Below, in pieces: positions 10,586 through 31,834 of a stretch of DNA of 64,000 nt. Each line of letters opens with the position of its first letter. Within the stretch, counting starts at the first letter, position 1. Source of the stretch: Candidatus Omnitrophota bacterium (GTDB taxonomy: Bacteria > Omnitrophota > Gorgyraeia > Gygaellales > UBA12090). The notes under the pieces are model-generated. The model did no database searches, was not told the DNA's origin, and worked only from the letters and a program-made list of their open reading frames with translations. The DNA is taken from NCBI GenBank assembly GCA_030674475.1, contig JAUSCZ010000017.1, positions 46,264-110,263 on the forward strand, in the 5' to 3' direction. A program made the translations under genes and the position numbers.

Positions 10586-11629
10586 TTATTTTACCTTACT
10601 ATATCTATATTTTTCGACCATATAAGTAGCTATATCAGACCAGTCGCTATCACTATATTCAATAAGAAGCTTATTTAATACAGATACCGACTTTCTATAA
10701 TTCTTATCCGTATCGGCATATAGCAAAGACAGAAAAAACAAGCTATCATCGCGGTATTTACTACCAGGAAAATCATTAATTAACTTAGTGTGCGCGTCAA
10801 TAGCCAGATTTCTCCTGCCATAAAGGCTATAATTCCTAGCCGCGTAAAAAAGCTTATAATCCGGCTCTTTAAAAGAAGGGAGTTTATTTTTTAAATAGGC
10901 ATCCTGATAAACATTAGCAAAGTTGCCACCCCCAAAAAAGTAATATAAATCTAACACTCTGTCAAAGAAACTTATATCCTCTATAAAACTGTTTGATCGC
11001 TTAGGCGGCATCGGAATCGGGAATAGGGTAGAATACCAAGCCATGCGGGACTGATACTCACTCTCCTCTAAATTTTTGAATGCTGGATGTTTAAAAATAA
11101 TCTGCGGATTTCTAGAAAGATCATCCAATGTCGCATATTCACCGTTGGGCAATTTAAAAAATGTGTATTCTATAGGGTCAAAAACAACCCAACGATTATG
11201 AAAATACACTTCTGAAATAGTGTGCCTGGAAACCCTGGTATTATCCATTAACATAGCATAGCGGCTGGGAATACCTTTTTTTGAGAGAAGAACATTAAAA
11301 ACCTTGGCTTGATAATCACACCATCCTATACCCATAATAAGAAAATCGAGAGGCTTGCCGTCATACGGCAGAGAATTTTTAGGTAGAAATAAATTGCTGT
11401 GAGTAAATTCAAAAAGTTTTAAGATTATCTCTTCCCGCGAATTAAAACTTTTCGTCTGGCGTTCAACAATAACTCTATCCGAAAGCTGTCGGTATGCATG
11501 ATTACTGAATTTAGCAGGCAGTAAAAATAAAGATATAAAAGGCGAGATGATCAACACTAAAGATACAACGGCTAAAACCGCAACCGTAAAACGCCACTTA
11601 ACAAACATAGCTGTTTCTCTCTCTATCAA
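10586..11629 (-). CDS. Transglutaminase-like domain membrane protein
   Basis: N-terminal TM helix. A Cys...His...Asp core (GWCDYQAKVF...SRHTISEVYF...WVVFDP) resembles transglutaminase-like cysteine proteases. The C-terminus is TPR-like. Paralogue of 37051-38157. Confidence 0.5.
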   Translation of the reverse strand: MIERETAMFVKWRFTVAVLAVVSLVLIISPFISLFLLPAKFSNHAYRQLSDRVIVERQTKSFNSREEIILKLFEFTHSNLFLPKNSLPYDGKPLDFLIMGIGWCDYQAKVFNVLLSKKGIPSRYAMLMDNTRVSRHTISEVYFHNRWVVFDPIEYTFFKLPNGEYATLDDLSRNPQIIFKHPAFKNLEESEYQSRMAWYSTLFPIPMPPKRSNSFIEDISFFDRVLDLYYFFGGGNFANVYQDAYLKNKLPSFKEPDYKLFYAARNYSLYGRRNLAIDAHTKLINDFPGSKYRDDSLFFLSLLYADTDKNYRKSVSVLNKLLIEYSDSDWSDIATYMVEKYRYSKVK

Positions 11630-11647: not shown

Positions 11648-13498
11648 CTATAAGCCTCCGTTGCTTGAGCCATGGTAGATACCCTTAATTAAATCCACGA
11701 CTCTTTTGGTGGAATTTCCGTCAATTCTATAAGCATGCCTGGAAATGAAAGCTCTGCGGCTGGAAGCAAGACTAGCTTTTGCATGTTCACTACTAAAAAT
11801 ATTTTTTATCGCTTCAAAAAGTTCGTTAAAATTTTTGGCCCCTAAGGCCGCTCCCTCCTTTACAAACGGAACAAGGTCATCCGTTTTATAAAGATTTAAC
11901 GCTATGACGGGCTTATTAAGTATAACCGCGTCCAGTGCCGCCGAAGAAAAAAGCGATGTTATAACCAAAGAACTCAAAGAGATAAGCTCTAAAATATCCA
12001 CATCCTTAACCACAAAAACATTGGGGTATCTAGCGCTAATATAATCCCTGCCGGCCAAATCAAACGGATGCATTTTAATTATTAGCTGCGTGTCGGTTAG
12101 ATATTCTATCGCCTTTAAAACATAGCCTATGGAAACAAATTCCGAATCTTTAAAATAATATACATTCAACTGTTCATCAAGATCCTTAAAGAAATTCCCT
12201 ATGTAAACTATAGTTTTTTTATCCATCTGGGCGCCTAACTTCAATAAGATATCTTTCTGGGGAGGCCTATCGTAAAATCTTTTATATAACGCGTCATGCT
12301 GGAATTTACCGGTAATAACACATTTATTCGTATCACTTCCATAACGCCCATACCAATCCGTTCCGGATTCGCCCCATAAAGCTATTTTATCCGAATGAAT
12401 TTTTGTATATACGCCCCTCTCAGCTAAAAGCCCGTGCTGAATGACTAAATTCGGTATATTGCAGTTCCTCGCGCTAAGGGTTATTGTCTTTTCAAGCTCC
12501 CTGACAGCTTCCCTCAGCACGATTATCCGCGGCTTAATTTTGTTATATAGATTTGTTAAAAAACATATATTTTTTCTAATTCTGCCAAAATCATCTATAA
12601 TAATTTTTTTGATGTAATTTTCCGAAATTCCCCAGATAGAATGACCTCTATAGTTAAAATGCTTTTTCAATTCTTTTTTGGAACGCGAAAAATACAGATA
12701 TCTGAAAAATAAACCCGCGATATCAAATCCTAACGCGCGGGTTTCCGGTATCAACGGAATAAAAGGAGCTTTTTCTCTTTTGAGCAAATTATAACGCGCG
12801 CGAATCCCTTTTTCTATCAGATACATGTAGGGGCTCAGGCCCTTATCAAGAGAGTTTTTCAATTGGCCGTAAAGACGCGAATCAATAAGCAGGCAATTCT
12901 TTACCCTGCTCGTTAAAAATATTCCGCGCAATATAAAATCCAATATGTTAGCAGTAGTGTCGCTCACAAAACGGCGCAGTTGCGCAATGATATCTTTAAG
13001 AAGATTTACGTCATTATCAATTCTTACAAATGAGCCTGAAATATCAAATTCCTCTTTTACGAATAAGGGAAAACGCGCGAATATGCTGCTACTGCTTATA
13101 AAGATAATGTTATCAGGATGAAATTTATCTATCGCTTTCAATAATATTTCTATTTTTTTTATAAGCATAGTAAATATCCGCTGTGTTTTTTCTTCTACCA
13201 GCGAACCAAGCCGAATACCCTTACAGCTATCAAAACCGTCTTTTGCTCTAAGGTTAAGATACCATTTTCGCGCAAAATCAAATATATAAGCATCCATGAA
13301 CTCATAATCTTTTACTGAAAGCAATTCATCAAAATATACCACATCCACGCCAAGTTCTTTAATAGGGGAGGTATCTACATTTGATGATACGACTTTAAAA
13401 TCGGGTTGCCGGTTATGTATCAAACTTTTTATCTTCCGGACAGCTTTGTCCAGCGAATCAAAATAATCCAGAAAAATAAGGGTCTTTTTATCGCTCAT
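11648..13498 (-). CDS. Hypothetical two-domain protein; C-terminal half is GT-B / 'HP-motif' transferase-like (candidate nonulosonic-acid or capsule transferase)
   Basis: 616 aa. The C-terminal region LIIKMHPFD...ITSLFSSAALDAVILNKPVIAL resembles HP-motif transferases (sialyltransferase/KpsS/TagF-like). The N-terminal half is unassigned. Confidence 0.35.
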   Translation of the reverse strand: MSDKKTLIFLDYFDSLDKAVRKIKSLIHNRQPDFKVVSSNVDTSPIKELGVDVVYFDELLSVKDYEFMDAYIFDFARKWYLNLRAKDGFDSCKGIRLGSLVEEKTQRIFTMLIKKIEILLKAIDKFHPDNIIFISSSSIFARFPLFVKEEFDISGSFVRIDNDVNLLKDIIAQLRRFVSDTTANILDFILRGIFLTSRVKNCLLIDSRLYGQLKNSLDKGLSPYMYLIEKGIRARYNLLKREKAPFIPLIPETRALGFDIAGLFFRYLYFSRSKKELKKHFNYRGHSIWGISENYIKKIIIDDFGRIRKNICFLTNLYNKIKPRIIVLREAVRELEKTITLSARNCNIPNLVIQHGLLAERGVYTKIHSDKIALWGESGTDWYGRYGSDTNKCVITGKFQHDALYKRFYDRPPQKDILLKLGAQMDKKTIVYIGNFFKDLDEQLNVYYFKDSEFVSIGYVLKAIEYLTDTQLIIKMHPFDLAGRDYISARYPNVFVVKDVDILELISLSSLVITSLFSSAALDAVILNKPVIALNLYKTDDLVPFVKEGAALGAKNFNELFEAIKNIFSSEHAKASLASSRRAFISRHAYRIDGNSTKRVVDLIKGIYHGSSNGGL

Positions 13499-13506: not shown

Positions 13507-14555
13507 TTAGAGTTTTTGGGCCAATAAACGCAAATCCCCTTCTCCGAATTTTTCACGCCCATACTTATCAGCCATAATCACGTCATGATCGAAATCTGTG
13601 GGAAATCCTCCTATGAGCCTCCTGAAATTCCCGAATCCAAACCGAGACAATCTAGACGTAATTTCATCCCAGCTCGTATGCCTATAAACTGCGTTTAAAC
13701 CATCGCCAAGATGATATCTTTTGCCGGTTTCAAGATTCAATTTATCAAGTACACCTAATGTAAAATCATGCGGAACATCCCTTAGGATAAAAAGTGAAGC
13801 ATCCCACAAATCATGGCTTATAGCACCACTGCCATCAGTATAATACCAAAACCATCCGCCGGATTTTAGAACACGCCTGGCTTCACAAATCGCGGCATCT
13901 TCATCCTCAAGATGATGAAAAACTCCATTTTGAATCGCAAAATCAAATGTATTATCCGGTTGGGAAACTTTATATACCGATTCAAATTTAAATTCAATTT
14001 TATCTTCCTTGATTCCCAAGCGGTTTCTGGCATCAATGGCATATTTAATTGATTCTCTCCGTAATCTATAGCATAGACGTATTCTGCTCCCTGACGAATC
14101 AAGGCATGGGCAAAATTACCGTGCCCGCATCCAAAATCTATGCATCTAAAATCCTTCAACCAACCGTCATCCAGATTGTTAACTTTAAGTCTATAAATAT
14201 ACCTCTCAATCCTGTTTTCGTATTCTTTCTTATCAAAATTGACCCAAAGTTTCTGAAATAACTCCTTGTGCCCATCCTCTAAAGTAATCCTCTCCCTACT
14301 ATTCATATTTTTTGCGCTATTCTCAATAAAAGAAACATCGCTCCAGATTTTTAAGAACTTTATTGAGTCAAGGATTAAGCCGCGGGTCAAGGCATAGGGG
14401 TGTTCTTTTAGATTGCGGTCTAACATTATTTTCTCATAACGCATATTCAGCATTACCAGCATCAAAACCTTCCCCAATGACATCATGGGAGTATTGGAAA
14501 TCTTATCCGCTTCTTTTTTTAATTCTTCTAAATCATCCAGGTATATTTTTTCCAT
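13507..14555 (-). pseudogene. Class I SAM-dependent methyltransferase disrupted by a frameshift
   Basis: Motif I (CIDFGCGHGNF, post-I AIDYGE) is in ORF 13866-14555. Motifs II/III (FDFAIQNGVFHHL, LKSGGWFW) are in ORF 13507-14019, in a different frame. The frames switch near 14020-14050. Confidence 0.6.
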
Positions 14556-14638: not shown

Positions 14639-15487
14639 CTATTGCTTCCCCAGGCAAGCCAGAAACGCGTATATCGTGTATTTTTCGCTGGGCTCTTTTA
14701 TGGATTCAGACTCTACTATTGAGTAACCACAGGCCTGGCTTAAATAACTAAGCGCATCCGGACTAAAAATAGTATAATGCTCTATATAAAATTCTTCTCT
14801 TTCTGTCAACTTTCCGTTATGAAGCGCGCTTAAACCGTCAGGCAGTTCTATATACACGATACCACCGCGCCCTAAAAATATCCTTGCCTTTTCCAAAAAA
14901 GATACCGGGCAATCCACATGCTCAAGGACTTTATTAAATGTTATAAGGCCGAATTTTAAACCGCTCTGATAAGAGAAAAAATCCCCCTGATAGGCGCCTT
15001 TTACTCCAACGTTATTTAGAGCATGGTTTATGGATATTGCCCCCGGGTCTATGCAATGGCCTTCCACTCCATATTTTTGAAGCTCGCCTAAAAATACGCA
15101 AAGCCCGCTGCCCACATCTAACACGCGCAACCTTTTTAATTCTATCCCCTTTTTTTCAAAAAAACGCGCAATCCTTTCGACGCGGTTTTTATTATCCGAG
15201 GAGGCAGGCGGAAAATTCATTAGCTGGTTATAGCGGGATAATATATTATTATTATAGGTGGCCGTATTATAGCTATCAACATACAGCTTATCAAAATCAT
15301 AATTGTGGAAATTGTTATAAACTCCGCAATGCCTGCATAAACAAATAATCCTATGGTAATCTTCCGGGTCTATGTCGAAATCCGTCTCTTTTTCCGGTTT
15401 TTTTGTAATAACACCGATTACTTCTAATTCTCCACAGTTACACAAATAACATTTCGAATTTTTCAATAAGGCGTTATCGTCATTCAT
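14639..15487 (-). CDS. SAM-dependent methyltransferase with N-terminal Cys4 zinc-ribbon
   Basis: CYLCNCG...CLCRHCG zinc ribbon, followed by LDVGSGLCVF motif I. Confidence 0.7.
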   Translation of the reverse strand: MNDDNALLKNSKCYLCNCGELEVIGVITKKPEKETDFDIDPEDYHRIICLCRHCGVYNNFHNYDFDKLYVDSYNTATYNNNILSRYNQLMNFPPASSDNKNRVERIARFFEKKGIELKRLRVLDVGSGLCVFLGELQKYGVEGHCIDPGAISINHALNNVGVKGAYQGDFFSYQSGLKFGLITFNKVLEHVDCPVSFLEKARIFLGRGGIVYIELPDGLSALHNGKLTEREEFYIEHYTIFSPDALSYLSQACGYSIVESESIKEPSEKYTIYAFLACLGKQ

Positions 15488-15830
15488 CCAACCACCCGGA
15501 TATTTTCATTTTTTCGGTTTTCAAATATTCAGCAAACTCTTTTCTTTTGTCTTTTTCCGCCAGCATTACAAAGTAACGACCCTGGGTATTTTTTACCAGC
15601 GCTGTCTTGAAACCCTGTTTTTTTAATCTTGAATTTAAAGAAGGCGTGGCATAAAAACCCCATTCCTTAGCGGTAACATCATATTCTCTTCCACCTTTAG
15701 TCATAAATGTAACTTGCTCATTTTGCCTAAGATATATTCTCGCGCAATCTAATATGGATATATTATTCTTAATGCCCACCTTAAATACGCGGGGCGGTTT
15801 TTTCTTTATAACTTTCATTTCCACTCCCAA
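15480..15830 (-). CDS. Hypothetical small protein (116 aa), translationally coupled between amidotransferase and methyltransferase
   Basis: Open frame with overlapping start/stop on both sides; no family recognised. Confidence 0.4.
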   Translation of the reverse strand: MGVEMKVIKKKPPRVFKVGIKNNISILDCARIYLRQNEQVTFMTKGGREYDVTAKEWGFYATPSLNSRLKKQGFKTALVKNTQGRYFVMLAEKDKRKEFAEYLKTEKMKISGWLDE

Positions 15831-16936
15831 TCTTTAATAAGAAATCCTTCCATCTTCCAGGCGCCGCTTTTTTTCTTCCAGATTTTTTTATTGCGGAATC
15901 TTTCTATTATCCCAAAAAAACGCTTCTTTGATATGCCCAGATATTTACAAAATTTCTCTATATCGCAAAGTGGAATTTCCTCTTTGCGCTCTTTTACTAT
16001 CTCTATAGCTTTTTCCCTACCTATTCTGCCGTTGCGTATTTCAATAGAAAGGTTATCAAATAACCGCGTAAAACCGAATTTATACCACTTAAGATAATGA
16101 TGAATGGATATAAAATCATCGTCTATGTCGGCATAATTATAATATCCGGTTTTGGCGCCTTCCGCTCTCGGCCTAAATCCATGTTTATAGGCAATATCGT
16201 AACTTCCGCGCGGATCCCATTTAAAATAATAGCCTAAAAACACTGCCTTGATATCCTTATCTTTTAATTTTTTATCCGTAGGTCCGTAATAAGGAGTGAG
16301 TTCTTTCTTCGTAAGGCCTTTAGACACCCAATCAGCCGCGCAAGTAGAATGCGTTACGCCAAACCTCTTGACCCATGCTGAATCAAGAAGAAACCCCTCA
16401 TATCCATCTTTCTCACTTCCGTATTCGAATGCCGAGTTTTCTCCATATACTATTAAGGGTATATTAAACTTAACCGCAATATTTAATGGTATATTAAATA
16501 TCGCCATATGCATAGGTATTCCAGTTGTTCCATAGCGCACGAAAGACTTATAAAGAAATTTTTTTTCGACTTTAGGACTTATCTGATAATCTATGTGGTC
16601 AACGCCCAAATTAATCAAATTATCTAAATTTCTCGCGCCTATACCTGTCCTAGCGGGAGTTTTCCAGGTAACAGCCAATATATTAAGGCCATACTCAAGA
16701 CACTTTATCACCTGCCATGTGCTGTCCTTGCCTCCGCTTACGGGTATAAGGCAATCGTAACCCTTACTGCGTGATTTAGCGCTATGGACAACGCGCTTAA
16801 ACATAAGGCGCCGCCTCTCCCAATCTGTTTCTTCCTGCTTCTTTAAACTGTTTTTACAGGCGTTACAAACACCATTATTTGCGATTACTATGCCGGGACG
16901 CGTATCAGGAAGTATACACTTTTTACAATAATTCAT
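15815..16936 (-). CDS. N-acetyl sugar amidotransferase (PP-loop ATPase; WbuX/PseA-type)
   Basis: N-terminal CxxC...CxxC zinc ribbon (CKKCILPD...CNAC) and PP-loop SGGKDS. Confidence 0.75.
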   Translation of the reverse strand: MNYCKKCILPDTRPGIVIANNGVCNACKNSLKKQEETDWERRRLMFKRVVHSAKSRSKGYDCLIPVSGGKDSTWQVIKCLEYGLNILAVTWKTPARTGIGARNLDNLINLGVDHIDYQISPKVEKKFLYKSFVRYGTTGIPMHMAIFNIPLNIAVKFNIPLIVYGENSAFEYGSEKDGYEGFLLDSAWVKRFGVTHSTCAADWVSKGLTKKELTPYYGPTDKKLKDKDIKAVFLGYYFKWDPRGSYDIAYKHGFRPRAEGAKTGYYNYADIDDDFISIHHYLKWYKFGFTRLFDNLSIEIRNGRIGREKAIEIVKERKEEIPLCDIEKFCKYLGISKKRFFGIIERFRNKKIWKKKSGAWKMEGFLIKDWEWK

Positions 16937-16938
16937 TT

Positions 16939-18759
16939 CTAGCTATTTAGCTCTAAGAATATCTTGGCGTTTATAAAATTAAACAAAAACATACTATAAC
17001 TATTTGCCATAGGCTTTATGTTCATTATTGACTCTATCTTATCCCTTTTAATTAACTTAAAAACCGGGCTATCGCTAAGCAGGTATTCTTTATTTTCTTT
17101 CTTTTCGAAATCCACCAAAGAATGGATAGAAGCATTAAAACCTTTTTTTTGCCTGTCTAAGCGGACCCTATCGTTTAATATGCCTTTCGTTGCTTGTCGC
17201 AGTATATACTTGCCGTAGGCATTCTGAATTAAATACTCGTTAGGTATAGAGTAAGAAAATTTAAACAAGTTTGAGTCCAGGTATGGGCTTCGGTTTTCTA
17301 TGGAATAAAACATTGAATTTAAGTCATCTTCATGCAATATGACCGGTGTCGCCTCATGAAATAATTCGTTTAGCATTCTGTTTCTGAGCAGCGAATCGCA
17401 ATACCTAATCTCGCTAAATTCTTCTTTAAAATCCCGTGTAAGAAAATCCGCGAACACATCATTATTTAAATATATATGATCCCGGAAATTAATATCTTCT
17501 GAATAAAGCCGCGGATTTTGAAGATGCGGATTGCGGATAAACCCCTTCACGTTATCTTCCCATTCCTTAAGGTATCTTGGAAATTTCTGGCTGTCAGCCA
17601 TCTCATAGAGATACAAATTAAAATGGTCGTAATATCCGGTGACCAGCTCATCCGCGGCTGTGCCTGAAGCGACCACTCTGTACCCTGCCTTAGATATTGC
17701 CTCAGAAAGAAGGGAATGAATATAATATGTGATCGTATAAACAGGAGCATCGTGGTATTCTATCAGATTCTTAAGCTTTTTGAGCGTTCCATGCTGCTCT
17801 ATATTAATTATCGTATTTTTGCACCTTAAATCATCTATTGTGGCCTTTATATTGTCATACTCATTATATCTTGGGTCGCTGTCAATTATGGAAAACGTGG
17901 CGACATCATAGTTAAAAACTTTTTGTGCTATAGAAACAATGGCAGATGAATCAACGCCTCCGCTAAGACAAAAAGCCAGAGGCACGTCCGCCCGAAGCCT
18001 TATTTTTATGCTCTCTAAAAGGTAATGTTTAAATCCCTCAACGGCCTCATCTATTGTCATTGAGCGGGGGGTGTATCCGGGCGTCCAATAACGGCTTAAT
18101 TCCGGCTTTAGATCGCCGTTAATTACCATGTTAGCAGCGTAAGGCAGTTCTTTTATCTCTTTAAAGAATGTCTCGTCTGTTTTATAGAGCGCCTTATACC
18201 CATTTACGATATGCCTTAATAAATGATTATTGTTAACGGTTGGGACTATCGCGGATAAAGATTTAATGAATTTTACTTCGGAAGCAAAATATATACCGTC
18301 GGGACAACACATATAATACAAGGGTTTTTCGGCAAAACGGTCGCGGGAAAGAAAAAGTTTATTCTGGCAAGCATCAAAGATCGCGAAACTCCACATACCC
18401 TCAAAATAGCTGACACATTCTTCTTTATATAGAATATAATGCTGCAGCAGTATTTCCGTATCAGATTCGGTTTTAAGCTTGATGCCTTTGTTAATAAGCT
18501 GTTTTTTTAATTCTATGTAGTTATAAATCTCGCCGTTAAAAATCAAAGTATAATCACCTATCGTAAACGGCTGGTTAGATCTGACATCGAGGTCAATAAT
18601 GCTTAATCGCGAATGCAAAAAATAGATATATAAATCCCCGGATTTAAAAACAGCATGGCCCTGATAATCCGGGCCGCGGTTTTTCATTAAATTTAAGGCC
18701 TTTAAGATTCTTTCTTTATTAATCGGTTTTTTTCCTATGTATCCGGCTATACCGCACAT
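16939..18759 (-). CDS. Asparagine synthase (glutamine-hydrolysing) family amidotransferase
   Basis: MCGIAGYIG N-terminal nucleophile and SGGVDSS PP-loop; 606 aa. Confidence 0.85.
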   Translation of the reverse strand: MCGIAGYIGKKPINKERILKALNLMKNRGPDYQGHAVFKSGDLYIYFLHSRLSIIDLDVRSNQPFTIGDYTLIFNGEIYNYIELKKQLINKGIKLKTESDTEILLQHYILYKEECVSYFEGMWSFAIFDACQNKLFLSRDRFAEKPLYYMCCPDGIYFASEVKFIKSLSAIVPTVNNNHLLRHIVNGYKALYKTDETFFKEIKELPYAANMVINGDLKPELSRYWTPGYTPRSMTIDEAVEGFKHYLLESIKIRLRADVPLAFCLSGGVDSSAIVSIAQKVFNYDVATFSIIDSDPRYNEYDNIKATIDDLRCKNTIINIEQHGTLKKLKNLIEYHDAPVYTITYYIHSLLSEAISKAGYRVVASGTAADELVTGYYDHFNLYLYEMADSQKFPRYLKEWEDNVKGFIRNPHLQNPRLYSEDINFRDHIYLNNDVFADFLTRDFKEEFSEIRYCDSLLRNRMLNELFHEATPVILHEDDLNSMFYSIENRSPYLDSNLFKFSYSIPNEYLIQNAYGKYILRQATKGILNDRVRLDRQKKGFNASIHSLVDFEKKENKEYLLSDSPVFKLIKRDKIESIMNIKPMANSYSMFLFNFINAKIFLELNS

Positions 18760-18782
18760 AATTAAAATTGTTTATTTTTCTT

Positions 18783-19793
18783 CTAACTAACATCGCTCCG
18801 CAAAATAAATTCCCCCTTTTTAACCGGCCTAAGAAGAGTTTTTCCTATAATTTCAGACTCCCGGCCAACGGCTAATCCGCAAGAAGGACGAACCCAAGTT
18901 ATATCATCTAACGTCAATATTTTTCCGCAACATAGGTTACGCTTTGCCGTTATCGAACGGCGCACCATATTTATAATCTGCCTTTCGCTTTTCTGCCTGA
19001 TTTTATTTCCATTGCCCATCATTTTCGCTGCCTCATTTATCTTTTTAACCATAAGCCTAAATTCTTTAGGATCAGCGGCTATCTTATGATCATGGAATTC
19101 AGAATAATTTTTATCAATTGTAAAATGTTTCTCAATGATCCTGGCGCCTAAGGCGACGGATAAAACAGCAGCATCTATACCCAAGGTATGATCCGAATAC
19201 CCTACCGTAAGGTCAAGCCTGTCTTTCAATGTCTTTATCGCTAACAAATTTGCCTCCTCAGGCTTTACCGGATAACTTGTTACGCAATGAAGCACCGCAA
19301 GCTCCTGCTTAAATTTTAACCTACGCCAGATATTAAAGATAAAATTCTTCGTTTTGATAATATCGGAAAATTCTGCTAATCCAGTAGATAAGATAATCGG
19401 TTTTTTGGTTTTCGCGATAACCTCTATTAACGGAAAAAAGTTATTATCGCCTGAAGAAATTTTAAAAGCCGGGACTAAATCTCTCAAAAAAATAGCGCTC
19501 TCTATGTCAAAGGGAGTTGAAAGAAATAAAACACGCTCATTTACAGCAACTTTGTTTAATTTTTCGAATTCTTTGTAGGTAAATTGATAACTTCTGAGTT
19601 GTCTTATCCTTTCTTTTTGACCAACAGATACCAATTTCTCCGGAACTATAGTTTGGAATTTAACCGCATGCGCGCCTGATTCAGCCGCAAGCTGTATCAT
19701 TTTCTTCGCTAAACTAAAACTGCCTTCATGATTATTGCCAATCTCGGCAACTATTAAAATATTTTCATCCAGGTCAAAATTATCTATTTTCAT
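18783..19793 (-). CDS. Nonulosonic acid synthase (NeuB/PseI/LegI family)
   Basis: IGNNHEGS...AVKFQT motifs, a C-terminal SAF domain, 336 aa. Confidence 0.85.
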   Translation of the reverse strand: MKIDNFDLDENILIVAEIGNNHEGSFSLAKKMIQLAAESGAHAVKFQTIVPEKLVSVGQKERIRQLRSYQFTYKEFEKLNKVAVNERVLFLSTPFDIESAIFLRDLVPAFKISSGDNNFFPLIEVIAKTKKPIILSTGLAEFSDIIKTKNFIFNIWRRLKFKQELAVLHCVTSYPVKPEEANLLAIKTLKDRLDLTVGYSDHTLGIDAAVLSVALGARIIEKHFTIDKNYSEFHDHKIAADPKEFRLMVKKINEAAKMMGNGNKIRQKSERQIINMVRRSITAKRNLCCGKILTLDDITWVRPSCGLAVGRESEIIGKTLLRPVKKGEFILRSDVS

Positions 19794-19808
19794 TTTTACG
19801 ACATAAAA

Positions 19809-20549
19809 TCACTCATTATGATAATGAAATATATAACTGCTCTCTTTAACCCTAAAACCCGCCTTTTCATAAAGCCTCAATGAAGGGATATTGGCTATCT
19901 GTGTCCCCACTCTCAATAATTTTTTACCCTTAAAATTATTTTCTGTGAAACTTATCATCGCGGAAGCAACGCCTTTGCCCTGATAAAGGATATCTACGGC
20001 AATAAGGTCTATCAAAATAGCATCATCCTTATTAATAAGCTGCAGGAATCCTATGGGTTTTTCTTTGTCTAAAGCCACAACCATCGCATTGCCGCGGATA
20101 CCCTTAAAAAAATTGCGCACCCATTCCACCTTAACAGAATCAGCGATATCTTTAGAAATTAAAGGGTCCCTATGAAACCTGCTGTATTTAAAAGCGGAAC
20201 CGGCGATCTTTTCCAGTCGGGGTTCATCACCGACAACGGCAAATCTTGTTATCCAATTTTTAACGAGTTGAGCGGATGGAAAAATTTCCTTTTCCAATAC
20301 GATATTTGTATCTATCAAATTAAAGCCTGATTTTTCCAATGCCTTAATGCTCTTAATGGACGCAGGTAAAACCTTGGCGTAAATAAAAATAGGCTGTTTC
20401 AGAAATTTTTCAAAAATGCCGTATTCTTTGCTTTCTTTGTCTGATAATGCCGCCGCTAAAATATCGTCCATACTCAAACGATAGGTTTTACGCCCAAGAA
20501 TTTGCGCCAGCCACACATCCTCTATAAAGTTAAGCTGATTATTATCCAT
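19809..20549 (-). CDS. GNAT family N-acetyltransferase
   Basis: C-terminal LYEKAGFRV motif and acetyl-CoA-binding-like QGKGVASAM. Confidence 0.7.
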   Translation of the reverse strand: MDNNQLNFIEDVWLAQILGRKTYRLSMDDILAAALSDKESKEYGIFEKFLKQPIFIYAKVLPASIKSIKALEKSGFNLIDTNIVLEKEIFPSAQLVKNWITRFAVVGDEPRLEKIAGSAFKYSRFHRDPLISKDIADSVKVEWVRNFFKGIRGNAMVVALDKEKPIGFLQLINKDDAILIDLIAVDILYQGKGVASAMISFTENNFKGKKLLRVGTQIANIPSLRLYEKAGFRVKESSYIFHYHNE

Positions 20550-20568
20550 CCATGCCCTTGCTATTTAA

Positions 20569-21627
20569 TTACCGCTTATTAATTACCTCGGCTTTTTTAA
20601 CATCCTGAATATGCGGCCAGATGGATTTATACCATTCAATATATTTCACAAAACCGGCTTCCAGCGGATACCGCGGATTATAACCTAATAATTTTGTCGC
20701 TTTCTCAACCGAAAGCGTGCCTCTATCAGGCATAAGCTTGTCTTTGGGAAGGTATTTTATCTTAACATCCGGGAAATGTTCAACCAGGATAGACGCCATA
20801 TCTTTTATTGAACGCGCCTGGCCATACGTCATATTAAAAATCTGATTCTTTGAATTAGAATTTATCAAAACCTTCACTATCCCTTCCGATAAATCTCCGA
20901 TATAAGTGAAATCTAAGCAGTCGGACCCGTTTCCACTTATTGAAACATCTAACCTCCGGATGGCATTTTCAATAAAAATCTGGCCTACCCGTCTGCTTAC
21001 GCATCTTTCTCCATACAAAGCCGACGGCCTGATTATTGTAAATGGAAGATCAAAAACCTGGTTATAAGCGATAACCATCTTCTCCCCCGCAAATTTTAAT
21101 GCTCCATAAATTCCCAGAGGCTCACAAGGAGTTTCTTCAGTTACATAACCCGCGGGAAAATTACCGTAAACCATGCTGGATGAAAAATAAACAAAATGCT
21201 TGATATTTAACTCCGGAGAGCGCGCGATATCCAAAGCATTCTCTAAGGTACGAAGACTATGGTCAAAAGTTGAATAGGGATCTTTATTTGACCTGTCCGC
21301 GTGCGCGACCGCGGCAAGATGTATTATTGTGTCGGGATTAATTTTTCCTATAATATGGCTCAGTTCTATGTAAGCGCGCGAATCCTGTTCTATCAAAGCA
21401 ATGTCATTCTCCCTCAAAAGATCAAGGCGATGCTGAATTATCTCTAAATAGAGTTTTGAATTGGGAATGGCATCTATATTAGTGTTAAAATAATGGTAGT
21501 TATTCACGGCCAAGCTATCAATAACGAACACTTCCGCGCCCAAGCTGTTAAGCTTGAGTGCCAGATTGTGGCCAATAAAACCTGCTCCACCTATTAATAC
21601 AACGCGCCGCTTTGATAAATTGCTCAT
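20569..21627 (-). CDS. NAD-dependent epimerase/dehydratase (extended SDR)
   Basis: VLIGGAGFIGHNL and YGALK motifs. Confidence 0.75.
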   Translation of the reverse strand: MSNLSKRRVVLIGGAGFIGHNLALKLNSLGAEVFVIDSLAVNNYHYFNTNIDAIPNSKLYLEIIQHRLDLLRENDIALIEQDSRAYIELSHIIGKINPDTIIHLAAVAHADRSNKDPYSTFDHSLRTLENALDIARSPELNIKHFVYFSSSMVYGNFPAGYVTEETPCEPLGIYGALKFAGEKMVIAYNQVFDLPFTIIRPSALYGERCVSRRVGQIFIENAIRRLDVSISGNGSDCLDFTYIGDLSEGIVKVLINSNSKNQIFNMTYGQARSIKDMASILVEHFPDVKIKYLPKDKLMPDRGTLSVEKATKLLGYNPRYPLEAGFVKYIEWYKSIWPHIQDVKKAEVINKR

Positions 21628-21629
21628 AT

Positions 21630-22775
21630 CTACCTCACTTTGATTATTGCTTCTTTAAGACATTTAACCATATACTCCATATCTTCCGCGTTTAAATGCG
21701 GCCCGACAGAAAGAGCGATAGAACTGTTACTAATTATAGAAGCCACAGGGAAACTATTCTTTTTGTAACCATATTTATTTTTATAATATGTAAAATGAGG
21801 AACCGGCTTAGGATAATAAACACTGGTGCCTATACCCCGCTCTTTAAGATAACTGACAATCTCAAAACGTTTTTTAGATATGCTATTTCTTAAAATAACG
21901 GACAGGCAATAGTAGCTGCTTTGATAATCGCCTCCCGAGGACTTTAAGAGGGATAGCTCATCCATATCTTTAAGGCCGTTACTCAATAATTCGTAATTTT
22001 CTTTTCTTATTTTTAAAAACCCGTTGACGCGCTTTAATTGTTCAATACCTAAAGCTGCCTGCAGCTCATTCATTCTATAATTAAAGCCCAGCATATCTAC
22101 GTCGTATATGCCGGGGGTTTTTCTTTCACCCACATGCCTGTCTACGCCGAATGCTTTCTGCCTTAATATCTTTCGCGCTATTTTTTTATGCTTGGTAAGC
22201 AGCATGCCTCCTTCGCAGGTGGTAAAGTGCTTAACCGGATAGAATGAAAAACACCCCACATCTCCGTGTAAACCGGCATGCCGGCCTTTAAAATAAGTAC
22301 CTACCGCCAAAGCGCAATCTTCCACGACGAAAAGATTATGTTTTGCGGCAATTTTATTAATCCTTTGCATATCTACCGGCATACCCAAGAAATGAACAAT
22401 CGAAATAGCCCGGGTGCGCCTGTTGATATTTTTCTCTATCTGGTTTATATCTATATTACCGGTTCTTTCTTCGGCATCTATAAATACGGGTTTAGCCCCG
22501 CAGAATTCTACGGCATGCGCAGTCGCCACATGCGTCTGCGCGGGGACAATTACTTCTTCTTTCGGCTTAAGACCAAGATAGAAATAAGATAAGTGCAGTG
22601 CCGCGGTGCAAGATGAAACCGAAACAGCGTATCCGCCGCCGGTGAAATTTGTAAATTTCTCCTCAAATTCTTCCGCGCGGGGCCCATGCACAAGAATACT
22701 ACCGCTTAGGACTTCTAAAACCGCTTTTTTTTCTTCTTCTTTAATAATAGGCCTGCCAAAAGGTATTGTTCTCAC
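21630..22775 (-). CDS. DegT/DnrJ/EryC1/StrS family PLP-dependent sugar aminotransferase
   Basis: N-terminal IPFGRPII.EEEKKAVLEVL and the overall pattern of the family. Confidence 0.85.
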   Translation of the reverse strand: MRTIPFGRPIIKEEEKKAVLEVLSGSILVHGPRAEEFEEKFTNFTGGGYAVSVSSCTAALHLSYFYLGLKPKEEVIVPAQTHVATAHAVEFCGAKPVFIDAEERTGNIDINQIEKNINRRTRAISIVHFLGMPVDMQRINKIAAKHNLFVVEDCALAVGTYFKGRHAGLHGDVGCFSFYPVKHFTTCEGGMLLTKHKKIARKILRQKAFGVDRHVGERKTPGIYDVDMLGFNYRMNELQAALGIEQLKRVNGFLKIRKENYELLSNGLKDMDELSLLKSSGGDYQSSYYCLSVILRNSISKKRFEIVSYLKERGIGTSVYYPKPVPHFTYYKNKYGYKKNSFPVASIISNSSIALSVGPHLNAEDMEYMVKCLKEAIIKVR

Positions 22776-23788
22776 TTATTAACCTCCTGAATATATTCTA
22801 CTTTAACTTTATTTTTTTCCCCGGCCGCTTTTTCTATGGCAAAACAAACTGACATAGCATCAAAAACTTCCTGATAGGGTATAGCTCCGGTACTTTTGTT
22901 TATAATTCCGTCAATAAAGTCATAAATTAACGCTCCTTTATGGACCCCGGGATAGTCTTCATAAATCTTTTCCGGCTGTCGATCGGCGTCTCGCGACTCA
23001 AAATATAATCCACACTCCAGGCCATTGACAAATGTCCCCTTAGTGCCATAAACCGATAAAGAATGAAAATGCGGAGAAACACACCCCATATTCACCGCCA
23101 ATTTTCCTACAATGCCATTTTCAAAGCGCAAGATAGAAACAACCATATCGTTATATTTAAAAAAACCGCTTGAAGAAATATTATTGCCGTACGCGGTAAC
23201 CTCTATTATTTTTTGTCCCGTAAGCCATAAAAGTAAATCTATTATATGTATGCCGCCGCCATAAACCACGGAATAAAAATCTAATTTTCCGCGCCATCCA
23301 TGCGTTATCTTATTTAACCGTCCATAATTATAATCTCCTTCGACATAAAATATGCCGCCCAGTTTTCCATTTTCAATTAATTTTTTTAAATAAATAAACC
23401 TGGGGCATTTACGCAATATTAAATTCGAAGAAAGTTTCAAATCTACCCTGCTTCTTAAGAGAGAATAGATATGCCTGGCTTCTTCTTCATAAAGACAAAG
23501 AGGTTTTTCCACAAAAACATGCTTATTATTTTTAATCGCCTGGATAATCTGCGGATAATGGTAGTTATCATAGGAAGCTACTGAAACTACGTTAATTTCT
23601 GGGTCATTTAATATATCATCCGGGTTATCGGTAAGCCTTATCCGCGGGTATTTCTTACGGGCTTCTTTTAATTTTTCTTCCGATAAATCACATAAAGCGA
23701 TAACCTGGCATCCGGGATGGCTCTGATATCCGGCCATATGCTGCTCCCCTACCCCCAACCCTATAATTCCGGCTTTTAATTGTTTCAT
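22772..23788 (-). CDS. Gfo/Idh/MocA family oxidoreductase
   Basis: N-terminal Rossmann fold (AGIIGLGVGEQH) and an EKP motif. Confidence 0.8.
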   Translation of the reverse strand: MKQLKAGIIGLGVGEQHMAGYQSHPGCQVIALCDLSEEKLKEARKKYPRIRLTDNPDDILNDPEINVVSVASYDNYHYPQIIQAIKNNKHVFVEKPLCLYEEEARHIYSLLRSRVDLKLSSNLILRKCPRFIYLKKLIENGKLGGIFYVEGDYNYGRLNKITHGWRGKLDFYSVVYGGGIHIIDLLLWLTGQKIIEVTAYGNNISSSGFFKYNDMVVSILRFENGIVGKLAVNMGCVSPHFHSLSVYGTKGTFVNGLECGLYFESRDADRQPEKIYEDYPGVHKGALIYDFIDGIINKSTGAIPYQEVFDAMSVCFAIEKAAGEKNKVKVEYIQEVNK

Positions 23789-23796
23789 TTTATCAA

Positions 23797-24495
23797 TTAG
23801 GCTGGCTGCCTATCAGCTATATCCTTATATATTCTAATAAGTCCTTTAAGGCCGCAGCTCCAATGCGGCTTATCCATATGGCGCACAATCGATGTTATTC
23901 TATCCATGTCAGCCTTCGTATCTACGCATAATCTTATCAAATGATAATCCTCTGATGATATGAGATTAAATATCTTATAATTATTTTGATTTAGATAAAA
24001 AAATCGCGTGACATGCTCGAAGTCCTCCAACTCTTTCATTTCTTCATACCCTTTCAGGAAAATATCCGATTTTAAAAGCTCAACAGACTGACCCTTAGGA
24101 TATGTGCGCTTTAGTACGTTTGTTACAATGTCAAAATCTCCACCTTTAAAAATATCTATTGCCTCGTTTATCAGGCAGGGATCAAGCAAAGGACTATCCG
24201 CGGATAACCTTAAAAAAGCGTCAAAATTATACATGCCTAACACCTCTTTAAATCTTGAAGCAACATTAGTAAGGTGCCCGCGATAAAATGTTATCCCCAG
24301 CCCTTTGCAGAATTCAACTATTGAATTATCATTTTTCTCATCAGACGTAGCTACTACTATATTATCCAAGTACTTGCATTGCCTTATCCGTTCAATCATA
24401 TATTCTAACATCGGCTTGCCGCAAATAGTGCTTAGGACTTTGCCGGGAAGCCTTCGTGAGCCCATCCTTGCCTGAATAACCGCGCCTATATTCAT
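23797..24495 (-). CDS. Acylneuraminate (nonulosonate) cytidylyltransferase family
   Basis: AVIQARMGSRRLPGKVL N-terminal motif of the CTP_transf_3 family. Confidence 0.8.
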   Translation of the reverse strand: MNIGAVIQARMGSRRLPGKVLSTICGKPMLEYMIERIRQCKYLDNIVVATSDEKNDNSIVEFCKGLGITFYRGHLTNVASRFKEVLGMYNFDAFLRLSADSPLLDPCLINEAIDIFKGGDFDIVTNVLKRTYPKGQSVELLKSDIFLKGYEEMKELEDFEHVTRFFYLNQNNYKIFNLISSEDYHLIRLCVDTKADMDRITSIVRHMDKPHWSCGLKGLIRIYKDIADRQPA

Positions 24496-26786
24496 AGTTT
24501 AAATAATACCCTAAAGATAAAACCTTCAAATTTAAACCTATCCGCGTAATTTTCAGGACGGACATAAAGCGCGGTATCGCGAACAATATTTAAAAAATAA
24601 AATAACTTTTCATCTGATTTAACCAAAGAAAGCCCGCCCAAGAAAGAACTTAACTCAGAAAAATCATTTTCCAGAAATCTAATCTTTGAAAACCAATACT
24701 TGCTCTCATCTATATTTCCGGAGAGATTTTTCAAAAATGATAAATAGAACAGACACTCCATATATTCACCTATCTCTTTATTCATCATTTGGGTAATATA
24801 GATAATCCGCGGATGTTCCACAAGGTTATATTCGTTACGATAATATAGAGATAGCTCGCGCACCCAATCATTTAAATCCCTTGCGCCTGTAATCCAAAAA
24901 AGGTCGTCTAATTGTAGATTCCCCAATATAAAATTTAGCAGGTACGGCCTCTGGGATGCCGCGCGGGTTAGTAATTTTTCCGCTTCTTCGTATTTTCCAA
25001 GCCTTAAATTTTCTCGGCCAGAATAAAAATCAATTAAAAAACGGCTTCCCGGCTCTCCTTCGCGGTTAAATACCTCGTAATCTTTAAAACCATAAGTTAA
25101 GTTATTTAACTTATGGGCATCTGCCGGCTGGCCTACCACCACATCCAGAAAGCGCTTATTAAACCTTTGCTTAAAGACAAAATTGATATTATCATTATAC
25201 CGATCAGCCGCGGAAAAACTTCCTTGATTGGTGAAAACAATAGGATTAATATTGTATAAATTTATGGTTTGCGCAAAATTATTGAGTTTGTATTTACTAC
25301 TGATGTCTTCTCTTACCGTATCCGCAATCTTTATATAGTCATATATATAAAAATTATTAGCTGTCTTGCCTCTATATAATGCTATCTTTATTGCCGCCAG
25401 GTTAGGCATTAAAAGGCCCGCGAATATTAATATCATAATAAAATTTATGAAGGCCTTGGGCCTAAATAAAGTTGTAATTTTTGCATAAAGGTAGTCAAAT
25501 ACCGAACAAAAGATAAGGCAAAAAAGCGCGGATAGATATACAAAGTATCTGGACGCGGTGGGATTCCATAAATAAAGATATATCAAGCTAAATATATACC
25601 AGGTAACTAACACCGCATTCTGCCTTTGCTTCAAAATATATGCCTTGGCGAATATGAACGCCATGAATAAAAATAGCAAAATACTGAAAACACTAAACCC
25701 CGCGGGAATAAAATGATATGGACGGAACGAATCAATAGACATTGCCGACTGCAAGGGGAATAAAAAGCTATTAAGCATACCCATAAATGGCACAATAAAA
25801 TTGTAAGGAATCAAAATCTTTCCAAAATTACCTGAAGCTATAGCCAGCATTACCGCTAAAAAAACCGTTGTCAAAAAAAGTAGCTTTGCCCTATCGCTAA
25901 GCATGGGCCTTTTTTGATGCCTTAAAAACAGTCTTAACAGAAAAATAAACAGAATCCCTATGGATAATAATATAAAGAAATTTATTATAAGGTTGTTATT
26001 GCCGAAATTAATAAATGTTATTCCCTTGCTGTTTAAAATTGAAAAAACCGGCCGTAAAAAAGAACCAAATCTTACATCGCCGCTTACTATCCTCAGTAAA
26101 GGATAAAAGAGGTAAATAAAAAATAGCGGAAGCCAAATATCGTATTTTCTAAGCATATCTTTGCGGTCTTTTGAACAAACTAAAATATGCGTCATTATCA
26201 TCGCGGGCAATATTAATATACTTAGCCGGCAGAAAGACGATAATAACGCTACCAATAAAGTCAGAAAGAAAAAGCCATGATATTTCTGTTGGGAAGAAAT
26301 TAAATTATTGGTTTTTAAATAAAATATTAATCCTGAAAGTATAAAAAAAACTACTATGAGATGCTGAAAAGCCATAGGCCACATATACGCATGAAAATGC
26401 GCAAAGAGCATAAGATACATCAAAGATGAAAGAAAGCTGACCCTGGAATTTAGTCCGAGATTTTTTGCCAAAAAATACAACAAAATAGAACAAGAAATAT
26501 GGAATAACATAGCCAGATAAATAAAACTTTTAGCTAAAGGACCGAATAAAAACAAGGTAACCAGCGTATAAATCTTTACGTCGGGAATCTCAAACCATAG
26601 ATGCAGAGGGTTTAAAACATACCAGGCTAATTTCACTAAAGAAAACCCTTCCGTATCTCTGAACAAAACCGGGATAAACCACAAAAGATCCTGCTCAAAA
26701 ACACTCCCTTTTATTTCATTACGAAGTATGATTAAGAATAAAAGTAAAAATACGCAATAAATTCCCAGACGTAATATTTTCGTCAT
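24492..26786 (-). CDS. Large polytopic membrane protein with C-terminal soluble (TPR-like) domain; possible GT-C transferase/polymerase
   Basis: 764 aa. The N-terminal ~450 aa are strongly hydrophobic with many TM helices. The C-terminal ~300 aa are soluble. Confidence 0.4.
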   Translation of the reverse strand: MTKILRLGIYCVFLLLFLIILRNEIKGSVFEQDLLWFIPVLFRDTEGFSLVKLAWYVLNPLHLWFEIPDVKIYTLVTLFLFGPLAKSFIYLAMLFHISCSILLYFLAKNLGLNSRVSFLSSLMYLMLFAHFHAYMWPMAFQHLIVVFFILSGLIFYLKTNNLISSQQKYHGFFFLTLLVALLSSFCRLSILILPAMIMTHILVCSKDRKDMLRKYDIWLPLFFIYLFYPLLRIVSGDVRFGSFLRPVFSILNSKGITFINFGNNNLIINFFILLSIGILFIFLLRLFLRHQKRPMLSDRAKLLFLTTVFLAVMLAIASGNFGKILIPYNFIVPFMGMLNSFLFPLQSAMSIDSFRPYHFIPAGFSVFSILLFLFMAFIFAKAYILKQRQNAVLVTWYIFSLIYLYLWNPTASRYFVYLSALFCLIFCSVFDYLYAKITTLFRPKAFINFIMILIFAGLLMPNLAAIKIALYRGKTANNFYIYDYIKIADTVREDISSKYKLNNFAQTINLYNINPIVFTNQGSFSAADRYNDNINFVFKQRFNKRFLDVVVGQPADAHKLNNLTYGFKDYEVFNREGEPGSRFLIDFYSGRENLRLGKYEEAEKLLTRAASQRPYLLNFILGNLQLDDLFWITGARDLNDWVRELSLYYRNEYNLVEHPRIIYITQMMNKEIGEYMECLFYLSFLKNLSGNIDESKYWFSKIRFLENDFSELSSFLGGLSLVKSDEKLFYFLNIVRDTALYVRPENYADRFKFEGFIFRVLFKL

Positions 26787-28075: not shown

Positions 28076-28090
28076 CTACTTTTTCTTTGC

Positions 28091-29101: not shown

Positions 29102-29135
29102 TCTATATATTCTTATCGAAAATACATGTTGATTG

Positions 29136-31108: not shown

Positions 31109-31112
31109 GCTT

Positions 31113-31832: not shown

Positions 31833-31834
31833 CT

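Follow-up and report, generated by a model that had tools for sequence, protein, structure and literature searches.

A widespread gene cassette in an Omnitrophota genome, proposed to make a multiply N-modified nonulosonic acid-type sugar by a non-canonical route

In a 64-kb stretch of a Candidatus Omnitrophota genome (GenBank assembly GCA_030674475.1, contig JAUSCZ010000017.1, positions 46,264 to 110,263; hereafter, the window), we identified a ten-gene unit at window positions 14639-24495 of the minus strand. With moderate confidence, we interpret this unit as one copy of a widespread, self-contained cassette for a cytidine monophosphate (CMP)-activated, multiply N-modified sugar of the nonulosonic acid type, made by a non-canonical route. 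The genes encode, in order, a cytidylyltransferase (CTP_transf_3), a Gfo/Idh/MocA oxidoreductase (GFO), an aminotransferase (DegT), an extended short-chain dehydrogenase/reductase (SDR), a GNAT acetyltransferase, a NeuB-family synthase, two amidotransferases (AsnB and WbuX), a small protein that we call u116, and a methyltransferase that we call MT282 (Table 1). An initial annotation had described a complete branch similar to the pathways of pseudaminic acid (Pse) and legionaminic acid (Leg) at 15480-24495. The gene block is real, and the eight enzyme families named in that description were recovered with Pfam and NCBIfam as contiguous, intact minus-strand open reading frames (ORFs), but the first methyltransferase (14639-15487), which is part of the unit, lay outside the described interval, and a ninth ORF within that interval (15480-15818; 112 aa, no family) was not mentioned. 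Because the ORFs, their families, their packing and their intact catalytic motifs agree, we uphold the block and extend it to 14639.

A conserved ten-gene cassette

The minus strand is the coding direction of the entire window, and coordinates are window positions unless another locus is named. The spacing between the cassette genes is 2-23 nt where they do not overlap. At its start, the cytidylyltransferase gene shares 4 nt with the gene upstream, the GFO gene begins 8 nt past the cytidylyltransferase gene, the AsnB and WbuX genes are separated by 2 nt, the WbuX stop and the u116 start share an ATGA overlap, and the u116 and MT282 genes overlap by 8 nt (ATGAATGA). The catalytic motifs are intact in all of the cassette enzymes. 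Scans for promoters and terminators gave matches at chance level only, and scans for tRNAs and Rfam elements found none.

How widespread is this arrangement? A scan of the NeuB protein against one genome per species returned 505 relatives, and we analyzed the best 80 loci, whose NeuB proteins are 40-67% identical to that of the window; the presence of each gene was counted in the 49 of these 80 loci that have sufficient flank on both sides. The matches of the window proteins to the 80 loci (tblastn) are collinear, and the gene order is unchanged. Of the 49 fully flanked loci, 15 hold all ten genes in collinear order, and most hold the first seven, a degree of conservation far above what chance would give. 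Among the ten proteins, the SDR is the best conserved (56-72% identity). The window NeuB itself is 100% identical to a protein (P0001) from a Candidatus Omnitrophota metagenome-assembled genome (MAG). Judging from the record titles, the hosts belong to Omnitrophota, Planctomycetota (including Scalindua), Desulfobacterota, Bacteroidota, Nitrospirota, Methylomirabilota, Acidobacteriota, Bdellovibrionota, Myxococcota, Fibrobacterota, and Alpha- and Gammaproteobacteria. An UpxY/NusG-like antiterminator gene, which marks the start of a polysaccharide operon, often directly precedes the cassette. Clustering of the ORFs of the 80 loci revealed no further recurrent family.

The full ten-gene set is also found on plasmid p5 of a cultured bacterium, Azospirillum brasilense MTCC4039 (NZ_CP032350.1), where the NCBI annotation pipeline PGAP gives the genes generic names only. 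On p5, the region occurs twice across the origin (L081/L083; 183.6-194.2 kb and 6.1-16 kb). The two copies have identical protein accessions and complementary frameshifts, each gene being intact in one copy, which looks like a circularization overlap in the assembly and not a true duplication.

The variants of the cassette are informative about its product. An Fmt-like formyltransferase replaces the GNAT in seven loci. Another variant, seen in 15 loci, has two genes inserted between NeuB and AsnB, one for a formyltransferase-like protein and one for a polysaccharide deacetylase; most of these loci keep the GNAT as well. The occurrence of a deacetylase and a formyltransferase beside an acetyltransferase implies two or more N-acyl positions on the sugar. 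One of them presumably comes from an N-acetylhexosamine precursor, and the other may be installed by DegT. The same two additions have been described for the Leg-related cluster of Candidatus Kuenenia stuttgartiensis, for which legB, legG and two legF homologues are also reported; its CMP-nonulosonates bear one amine that is free and one that is formylated (SugarBase preprint). The window contains no legG and no deacetylase/formyltransferase pair. Downstream of MT282, many loci (for example, L032, 15233-16806; L079; L033; L081, 16275-23170) have extra genes for class I methyltransferases and for another AsnB-related protein that is more distant, and some also encode a sulfotransferase and an APS kinase. 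These genes suggest an extended decoration module, which is missing from the window.

The synthase and the cytidylyltransferase

The NeuB protein matches the Pfam NeuB family (PF03102) with 230.2 bits against a cut-off of 22.1, contains an SAF domain (39 bits), and has PDB matches exclusively among nonulosonate synthases. Its metal and phosphoenolpyruvate (PEP) ligands E17, K45, H202 and H223 are present, and the motifs EIGNNH, VKFQT, SDHT and EKHF align with their equivalents in Neisseria meningitidis NeuB and PseI. The Pfam scores and the PDB matches rule out an enzyme of the Kdo8P/DAHP synthase type. Because the protein is a genuine member of the NeuB family, it does not group with such synthases, and its initial identification as a nonulosonate synthase stands.

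Placement of the enzyme among the Pse, Leg and neuraminic acid (Neu) types, which had been proposed as a check, gave a divided answer: it belongs to the nonulosonate synthase family but not to any of the reference types. In a neighbor-joining tree, 74 cassette NeuBs form one clade, and all four references (PseI, 8h2c; N. meningitidis NeuB; Bacillus subtilis SpsE; Leptospira NeuB) lie outside it. The window NeuB is 31-38% identical to these references (35% to PseI, 31% to N. meningitidis NeuB and 36% to SpsE), which are 29-37% identical among themselves. Among the NCBIfam equivalogs, it fails both that of PseI (TIGR03586; 234 bits against a cut-off of 340.25) and that of NeuB/LegI (TIGR03569, NeuB_NnaB; 293.5 against 399.65).

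The cytidylyltransferase matches CTP_transf_3 with 103.7 bits and lies below every NCBIfam equivalog (PseF, 44.8 against 205.7). The KdsB models cover only its N-terminal half, and its top PDB match is the Leptospira cytidylyltransferase 6oew (112 bits), the KdsB entries scoring about 45. In one protein (P0424), a NeuB of the cassette clade, 52% identical to the window NeuB and 51% identical to a Rhodospirillales member of the clade, is fused to a CTP_transf_3 domain. Given this fusion, the cytidylyltransferase most likely activates the NeuB product and not an early hexose. The metagenomic contig that carries this fusion (L082, 8001-9590) has a second one, in which DegT and SDR orthologues (63% identity each) are joined in one 768-aa ORF at 3047-5353; this cluster also has genes for WbqC and a 2-hydroxyacid dehydrogenase.

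Comparison with the canonical pathways

Is the cassette a complete Pse/Leg-like branch, as the initial annotation proposed? Five observations speak against this. First, all of the pathway-specific models are missed. In addition to NeuB and the cytidylyltransferase, DegT (Pfam DegT, 364 bits) lies below its nearest NCBIfam model, the PseC equivalog (308.9 against 423.5), and below the LegC-family model TIGR04181 (229.8 against 420). The SDR (Pfam Epimerase, 137 bits; Polysacc_synt_2, a weak 24.8 bits) lies far below all equivalogs (LegB, TIGR04180, 84.7 against 475), and the GNAT, which matches Acetyltransf_1 and, below its cut-off, the WecD model (87 bits), has no match to the PseH model. Second, the NeuB clade stands apart from PseI and from the Leg-type SpsE. 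Third, the SDR, in which GGAGFIG and Y174/K178 are present, has a motif (SSSMVYG...YGALK) that is kept across 53 homologues and that represents the Ser-Tyr-Lys triad of epimerases and reductases. The 4,6-dehydratases and the decarboxylases use an Asp/Glu (TDE, TDK or TSE) for elimination, and no Asp/Glu follows the active-site Ser in the SDR or in any of its 53 homologues; this motif is why we do not read the SDR as a 4,6-dehydratase of the standard kind or as a decarboxylase. Fourth, canonical cassettes keep the gene for a nucleoside diphosphate (NDP)-sugar hydrolase in the cluster, and no hydrolase/2-epimerase of the PseG, LegG or NeuC type (Epimerase_2) was found among the scanned ORFs (100 aa or longer) of the 64-kb window, nor was such a family recurrent in the clustering of the best 80 loci. 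Fifth, a Gfo/Idh/MocA enzyme has no part in the canonical Pse/Leg routes. Because the model cut-offs are missed, the NeuB clade is separate, the SDR motif is not that of a dehydratase and a hydrolase/2-epimerase was not found, we conclude that, as far as the sequences can tell, the cassette does not encode the canonical pathway of Pse, Leg or Neu.

The partial likenesses are nevertheless clear. With the Pse pathway (PseB, C, H, G, I, F), the cassette shares a DegT that is nearest to PseC, a GNAT, a NeuB-family synthase and a CTP_transf_3 enzyme; unlike that pathway, it has no PseB-type 5-inverting dehydratase and no PseG, and its proteins fall below the equivalog cut-offs. With the Leg pathway (LegB, C, H, G, I, F; the seven-gene Leptospira type), it shares the NeuB-family synthase and the cytidylyltransferase, for which the nearest structures include those of Leptospira (6oew for the cytidylyltransferase; 6ncs among those nearest to NeuB), but it lacks LegG/NeuC, an LbH-type LegH and a PtmE-like nucleotidyltransferase, and the LegB and LegC models are far below their cut-offs.

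We considered that these likenesses might reflect a route of canonical type, in which the SDR would be an atypical 4,6-dehydratase of NDP-N-acetylglucosamine (NDP-GlcNAc), DegT would correspond to PseC/LegC and the GNAT to PseH, and the hydrolase/2-epimerase would come from elsewhere in the genome. The resulting CMP-Pse or CMP-Leg would then be converted to an N-methyl-acetimidoyl derivative by WbuX and the methyltransferase, and GFO would only epimerize, as ElaA (see below). Several observations agree with such a route: PseC is the best curated model for DegT (309 bits); the GNAT is of the same class as PseH, and its sole PDB relative, the TDP-fucosamine acetyltransferase 2fs5, acetylates a 4-amino-6-deoxyhexose; among the PDB matches of the SDR, none above 85 bits (Pal, 6bwl; ADP-heptose 6-epimerase, 3sxp), the weak top match, Pal, belongs to the Pse pathway of Bacillus thuringiensis; the DegT-SDR fusion resembles a dehydratase/aminotransferase pair; and the JGI annotation labels relatives as legionaminate synthase. 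Acetamidino-modified and methylated CMP-sugars of the Pse/Leg type are also seen in environmental bacteria (SugarBase preprint). Against it stand the wide margins by which every Pse/Leg equivalog cut-off is missed, the SDR motif without the residue for 5,6-elimination, the missing hydrolase and the position of the NeuB clade. We therefore regard a canonical-type route as unlikely, although still plausible.

Proposed tailoring of the CMP-sugar

The route that we propose instead would modify the sugar after its activation, for which there is a precedent. In Acinetobacter baumannii KL49 and Vibrio vulnificus, ElaB, ElaA and ElaC epimerize C8 of CMP-Leg5,7Ac2: ElaB is a cytidylyltransferase, ElaA is a 323-aa Gfo/Idh/MocA protein proposed to oxidize the C8 hydroxyl of CMP-Leg5,7Ac2, and ElaC is an SDR that reduces the 8-keto intermediate (PMC13656337). 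The Aci enzymes also work on finished CMP-sugars. Like the Ela system, the cassette places three enzymes in one nonulosonate cluster: a cytidylyltransferase, an SDR and a Gfo/Idh/MocA protein about 330 aa long. GFO matches all three of the Gfo/Idh/MocA Pfam domains, and its best PDB match is 3ezy (TM_0414; 75 bits), which is also the closest solved structure to ElaA (PMC13656337). Its catalytic residues K95 (the EKP lysine) and H181 match K91/H181 of ElaA. GFO thus has the features of an ElaA-type enzyme, namely the Gfo/Idh/MocA family, the Lys and His residues and a place beside a cytidylyltransferase in a nonulosonate cluster. The Ela genes stand beside a complete lga (Leg) module of the canonical kind, which is absent from the cassette, and the presence of DegT and a GNAT beside the oxidoreductases suggests amination, not simple epimerization as in the Ela system. 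The Schiff-base lysine of DegT (K182, in YPVKH) is present; the best PDB matches of this protein are 7b0m (214 bits), QdtB (183) and ArnB (174), and WbpE is also among its matches.

Two amidotransferases

The two amidotransferases of the initial annotation are both present with intact catalytic motifs, and both pass curated cut-offs. WbuX scores 329.1 bits against 203.2 for TIGR03573 and has CxxC motifs at residues 4 and 24 and a PP-loop (SGGKDS) at residue 67; Pfam, even with its threshold relaxed, gives no match for this protein. AsnB scores 369.1 bits against 267.1 for TIGR01536, carries GATase_7 and Asn_synthase domains, and retains Cys2 (MCG at residue 1) and a PP-loop (SGGVDS) at residue 266. 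From its gene context, we dismissed AsnB as a housekeeping asparagine synthase: in 44 of the 49 fully flanked loci, its gene is next after NeuB, the loci without WbuX included. A doubly modified sugar, as was initially suggested, is possible.

What does AsnB amidate? Enzymes of the WbuX family usually, although not universally, adjoin a HisH/HisF-like pair (WbuY/WbuZ) that provides the glutaminase and the channel. Scans of the window found no such pair, the AsnB and WbuX genes are almost contiguous, and where HisH/HisF pairs do occur elsewhere (L011, L029 and L074) they adjoin a more distant type of WbuX. These observations could be explained if AsnB replaced the pair as the glutaminase and ammonia-delivery partner of WbuX, so that only a single, acetamidino-forming amidation took place. 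However, AsnB is found in 44 of the 49 loci and WbuX in 27, many cassettes have AsnB without WbuX, AsnB occurs together with HisH, HisF and WbuX in two loci (L011 and L029), and it has a complete synthetase domain with an intact PP-loop, for which a pure glutaminase would have no need. AsnB is therefore unlikely to be a mere ammonia donor for WbuX, and we consider a single amidation distinctly improbable. Enzymes similar to AsnB form uronamides, and by analogy our best guess is that AsnB would convert a carboxylate to a carboxamide; the alternative is a second amidine.

The uronamide analogy also raises the idea that the cassette serves two sugars, with GFO, DegT, the GNAT, WbuX and AsnB making a 2-acetamido-3-acetamidino-2,3-dideoxy-uronamide, as WbpB/E/D/G and WbpS do in Pseudomonas aeruginosa, and with NeuB and the cytidylyltransferase making plain sialic acid or Kdn. 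WbpB is a Gfo/Idh/MocA protein, WbpE a DegT protein and WbpG a member of the WbuX family, so that the enzyme classes agree. This idea is very improbable: although WlbA (3q2k) is among the PDB matches of GFO, WbpE is among those of DegT and a UDP-sugar 6-dehydrogenase adjoins the cassette in 9 of the 80 loci, the WlbA match is weak (56 bits), most loci lack that dehydrogenase, neither it nor a WbpI-type 2-epimerase was found among the scanned window ORFs of at least 100 aa, NeuB lies in the middle of a set that is inherited as a block, and NeuB would still have no source of N-acetylmannosamine.

A putative split methyltransferase

The initial annotation also reported two coupled methyltransferases. 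A coupled pair does exist, but it consists of u116 and MT282. In u116, we found no Pfam or NCBIfam match, even at a relaxed Pfam threshold, and all 45 of its 45 close homologues are annotated as hypothetical. The AlphaFold2 model of u116 has a pLDDT of 92, and a Foldseek search of this model against the PDB gave no match at E < 1. A profile search retrieved 473 cluster representatives; among the best 150 matches, about 35 are proteins of 350-413 aa in which the u116 domain is N-terminal. When three of these fusions were tested, two contained Methyltransf_23 (P0171 and P0183) and one contained a hexapeptide-repeat domain. MT282 likewise matches Methyltransf_23, and the methyltransferase part of P0171 is 40% identical to MT282. 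These fusions lead us to infer that u116 and MT282 together form a split two-domain methyltransferase.

Gain and loss of WbuX, of u116 and of the methyltransferase go together across the loci; in all but one of the 23 fully flanked loci with MT282, WbuX is present as well. The same pairing is known from Leg biosynthesis. In Campylobacter, PtmG (Cj1324) makes the acetimidoyl group and PtmH (Cj1325/6) methylates it, and ORF28 and ORF8 of the Legionella pneumophila lipopolysaccharide locus act likewise, so that CMP-Leg5Am7Ac is converted to CMP-Leg5AmNMe7Ac. In gene context, the cassette shares with these systems a PP-loop amidotransferase of the WbuX/PseA family followed by an S-adenosylmethionine (SAM)-dependent methyltransferase inside a nonulosonate cluster. 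It differs in that the methyltransferase is split into a 112-aa domain and a catalytic domain, there is no HisH/HisF pair and the underlying pathway is not that of Leg. Given this arrangement and the covariation, the suggestion of an N-methylated amidino group in the initial annotation is supported, and we propose that MT282 may N-methylate the acetamidino group.

The second of the methyltransferases first reported, downstream of MT282, is represented by two overlapping ORFs of 229 and 170 aa at 13507-14555, which are the two halves of one methyltransferase domain. A 1-nt frameshift lies near 14045 (AATCA, where AATTCA would restore the frame), and the gene is either a pseudogene or the result of an assembly error in the MAG. 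An intact 347-aa homologue is encoded at 19848-20891 of L047, the only related locus in which this gene is paired with the cassette; the frameshift and the conservation in this single locus rule it out as a cassette member.

Table 1. The cassette and two downstream genes in the 64-kb window, with the number of fully flanked loci in which each cassette gene was counted
Feature	Position	Strand	Length	Remarks	Loci
Cytidylyltransferase (CTP_transf_3)	23797..24495	-	232 aa	proposed CMP-nonulosonate synthetase	36/49
Gfo/Idh/MocA NAD(P) oxidoreductase (GFO)	22772..23788	-	338 aa	proposed sugar-hydroxyl dehydrogenase	42/49
DegT-family pyridoxal phosphate (PLP)-dependent sugar aminotransferase	21630..22775	-	381 aa		46/49
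Extended SDR, epimerase/oxidoreductase type	20569..21627	-	352 aa		35/49
Two-domain GNAT N-acetyltransferase, WecD-like	19809..20549	-	246 aa		34/49
NeuB-family PEP-condensing synthase with SAF domain	18783..19793	-	336 aa	separate clade	
AsnB-family glutamine-dependent amidotransferase	16939..18759	-	606 aa		44/49
WbuX/PseA/PtmG-type N-acetyl sugar amidotransferase	15815..16936	-	373 aa		27/49
u116, no family	15480..15818	-	112 aa	putative detached N-terminal methyltransferase domain	27/49
MT282, class I SAM methyltransferase with N-terminal 4-Cys motif	14639..15487	-	282 aa	proposed acetamidino N-methylase	23/49
Second methyltransferase	13507..14555	-		frameshifted; outside the conserved cassette	
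Candidate CMP-sugar transferase	11648..13498	-	616 aa	Glyphos_transf/TagB-like, glycosyltransferase fold B (GT-B)	

The proposed route

How might these enzymes act together? We propose that the NeuB homologue would condense PEP with an aldose of the N-acetylhexosamine type, which the cassette does not itself supply, and that the cytidylyltransferase would activate the resulting keto-acid. Tailoring would then take place on the CMP-sugar. A hydroxyl group would be oxidized by GFO, as by ElaA on CMP-Leg, or by the SDR; DegT would transaminate the keto group, the GNAT would N-acetylate the amine, and the remaining oxidoreductase would set the stereochemistry. WbuX would turn one N-acetyl group into an acetamidino group, which the split methyltransferase (u116 and MT282) would N-methylate, as PtmG and PtmH do, and AsnB would carry out a separate ATP- and glutamine-dependent amidation. 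Because there is no 4,6-dehydratase, the product may retain its 9-hydroxyl and in this respect differ from Leg and Pse. More tentatively, and as a possibility that we hold doubtful, the cassette would represent an undescribed route to diamino-nonulosonates, in which the second amino group is added after PEP condensation and CMP activation and the NDP-hexose 4,6-dehydratase and hydrolase steps are bypassed. If so, the cassette would make a sugar that is new, such as a 9-hydroxylated 5,7-diacylamido nonulosonate with an N-methyl-acetamidino group and an amide made by AsnB, and this sugar would be zwitterionic or net positive.

Several points weigh against this interpretation. The route is read from genes and the sugar itself is a prediction; likewise, we infer the order of the steps relative to condensation and activation. 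The enzymes most like DegT and the GNAT (PseC, ArnB, WecD) work on C4 of NDP-hexoses, a similarity that would fit a pre-condensation route equally well and leaves room for amination before condensation, with the release step supplied in trans. The cassette genes do not appear to account for the source of the aldose, and genes for any missing steps could lie on another part of the 225-kb contig or elsewhere in the genome. The structure 3ezy is a generic member of its family, and the likeness of GFO to ElaA comes from this shared template and from the motif, not from a direct alignment; ElaC, moreover, is a classical FabG-like SDR, whereas the SDR of the cassette is extended and GalE-like. Finally, the target assigned to AsnB is a guess, and we know of no natural nonulosonate 1-carboxamide.

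In its general type, nonulosonate biosynthesis with amidino and N-methyl tailoring is known. Our full-text literature search found no paper that describes this cassette, no report of a nonulosonate in Azospirillum and none of a natural 5,7-diacylamido-3,5,7-trideoxy nonulosonate. Magnetospirillum gryphiswaldense, whose CMP-sugars have been profiled, is absent from the best 120 matches to a Rhodospirillales-type NeuB.

The surrounding glycan locus

The neighboring genes indicate that the cassette is one module of a very large locus of the O-antigen or capsule type; an O-antigen ligase and heptosyltransferases, for example, are encoded at 52-58 kb. Downstream of the cassette, and not conserved with it, lies the gene for a 616-aa GT-B protein with a Pfam Glyphos_transf match, a weak Capsule_synth match and an HP motif at residue 477. 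TagB-like proteins with HP motifs are the transferases of Pse/Leg derivatives in Tannerella forsythia (PMC5420450), and by analogy this protein is the candidate transferase for the CMP-sugar. Farther downstream, a transglutaminase-like protein, a B12-radical SAM enzyme, a Wzx flippase and glycosyltransferases are encoded.

Immediately upstream, a gene at 24492-26786, the end of which forms the 4-nt overlap with the start of the cytidylyltransferase gene, encodes a 764-aa polytopic membrane protein. This protein has no Pfam family, even at a relaxed threshold, with only a faint TPR match, and its gene is not conserved beside the cassette in other genomes; it may be a transferase of the glycosyltransferase fold C (GT-C) type or a polymerase. 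A second sugar branch follows at 26783-37014, with an RfbH/E1-like DegT protein (430 aa), a CDP-glucose-4,6-dehydratase-like SDR, a GT2, a DAO-type FAD oxidoreductase, an NTP_transferase, a GHMP kinase, a B12-binding radical SAM enzyme, a transketolase encoded as separate N and C subunits, and another SDR. This branch looks like a pathway for a 3,6-dideoxy sugar or for a branched-chain (two-carbon-extended or C-methylated) sugar. The two B12-binding radical SAM enzymes of the window, at 9135-10565 and 32824-34296 (476 and 490 aa), are possible sugar C-methylases. Ten-carbon ulosonic acids of unknown origin have been detected in M. gryphiswaldense (SugarBase preprint), and no link between these and radical SAM enzymes has been established.

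Transglutaminase-core proteins, one of them with TPR repeats, are encoded at 10586-11629 and 37051-38157 within the glycan locus. Between two glycan clusters, an island of small genes of the toxin-antitoxin type (38575-47305) encodes two DUF2442 proteins, an HEPN and MNT pair, a PIN protein, a 281-aa MNT-HepT fusion, AbiEii, a DUF4258 and DUF433 pair, two winged helix-turn-helix regulators, a papain-like fragment and a 127-aa retropepsin-like aspartyl protease.

Implications

Nonulosonic acids cap bacterial surface glycans and influence phage binding, immunity and surface charge. In mass-spectrometric surveys of environmental bacteria, numerous nonulosonate variants are left unassigned (SugarBase preprint), and gene-based prediction of nonulosonates still leans on the three canonical pathways. 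Because the cassette described here, which is common among environmental bacteria that are uncultured, occurs in about a dozen phyla and receives only generic names from curated models, it could explain part of this unassigned chemistry. Its presence in the cultivable A. brasilense makes direct testing feasible, and it provides a first functional context for a 112-aa domain of unknown fold. If tailoring does take place on the CMP-sugar, the cassette would constitute a compact enzyme set for the production of aminated, amidinated and N-methylated analogues of sialic acid.

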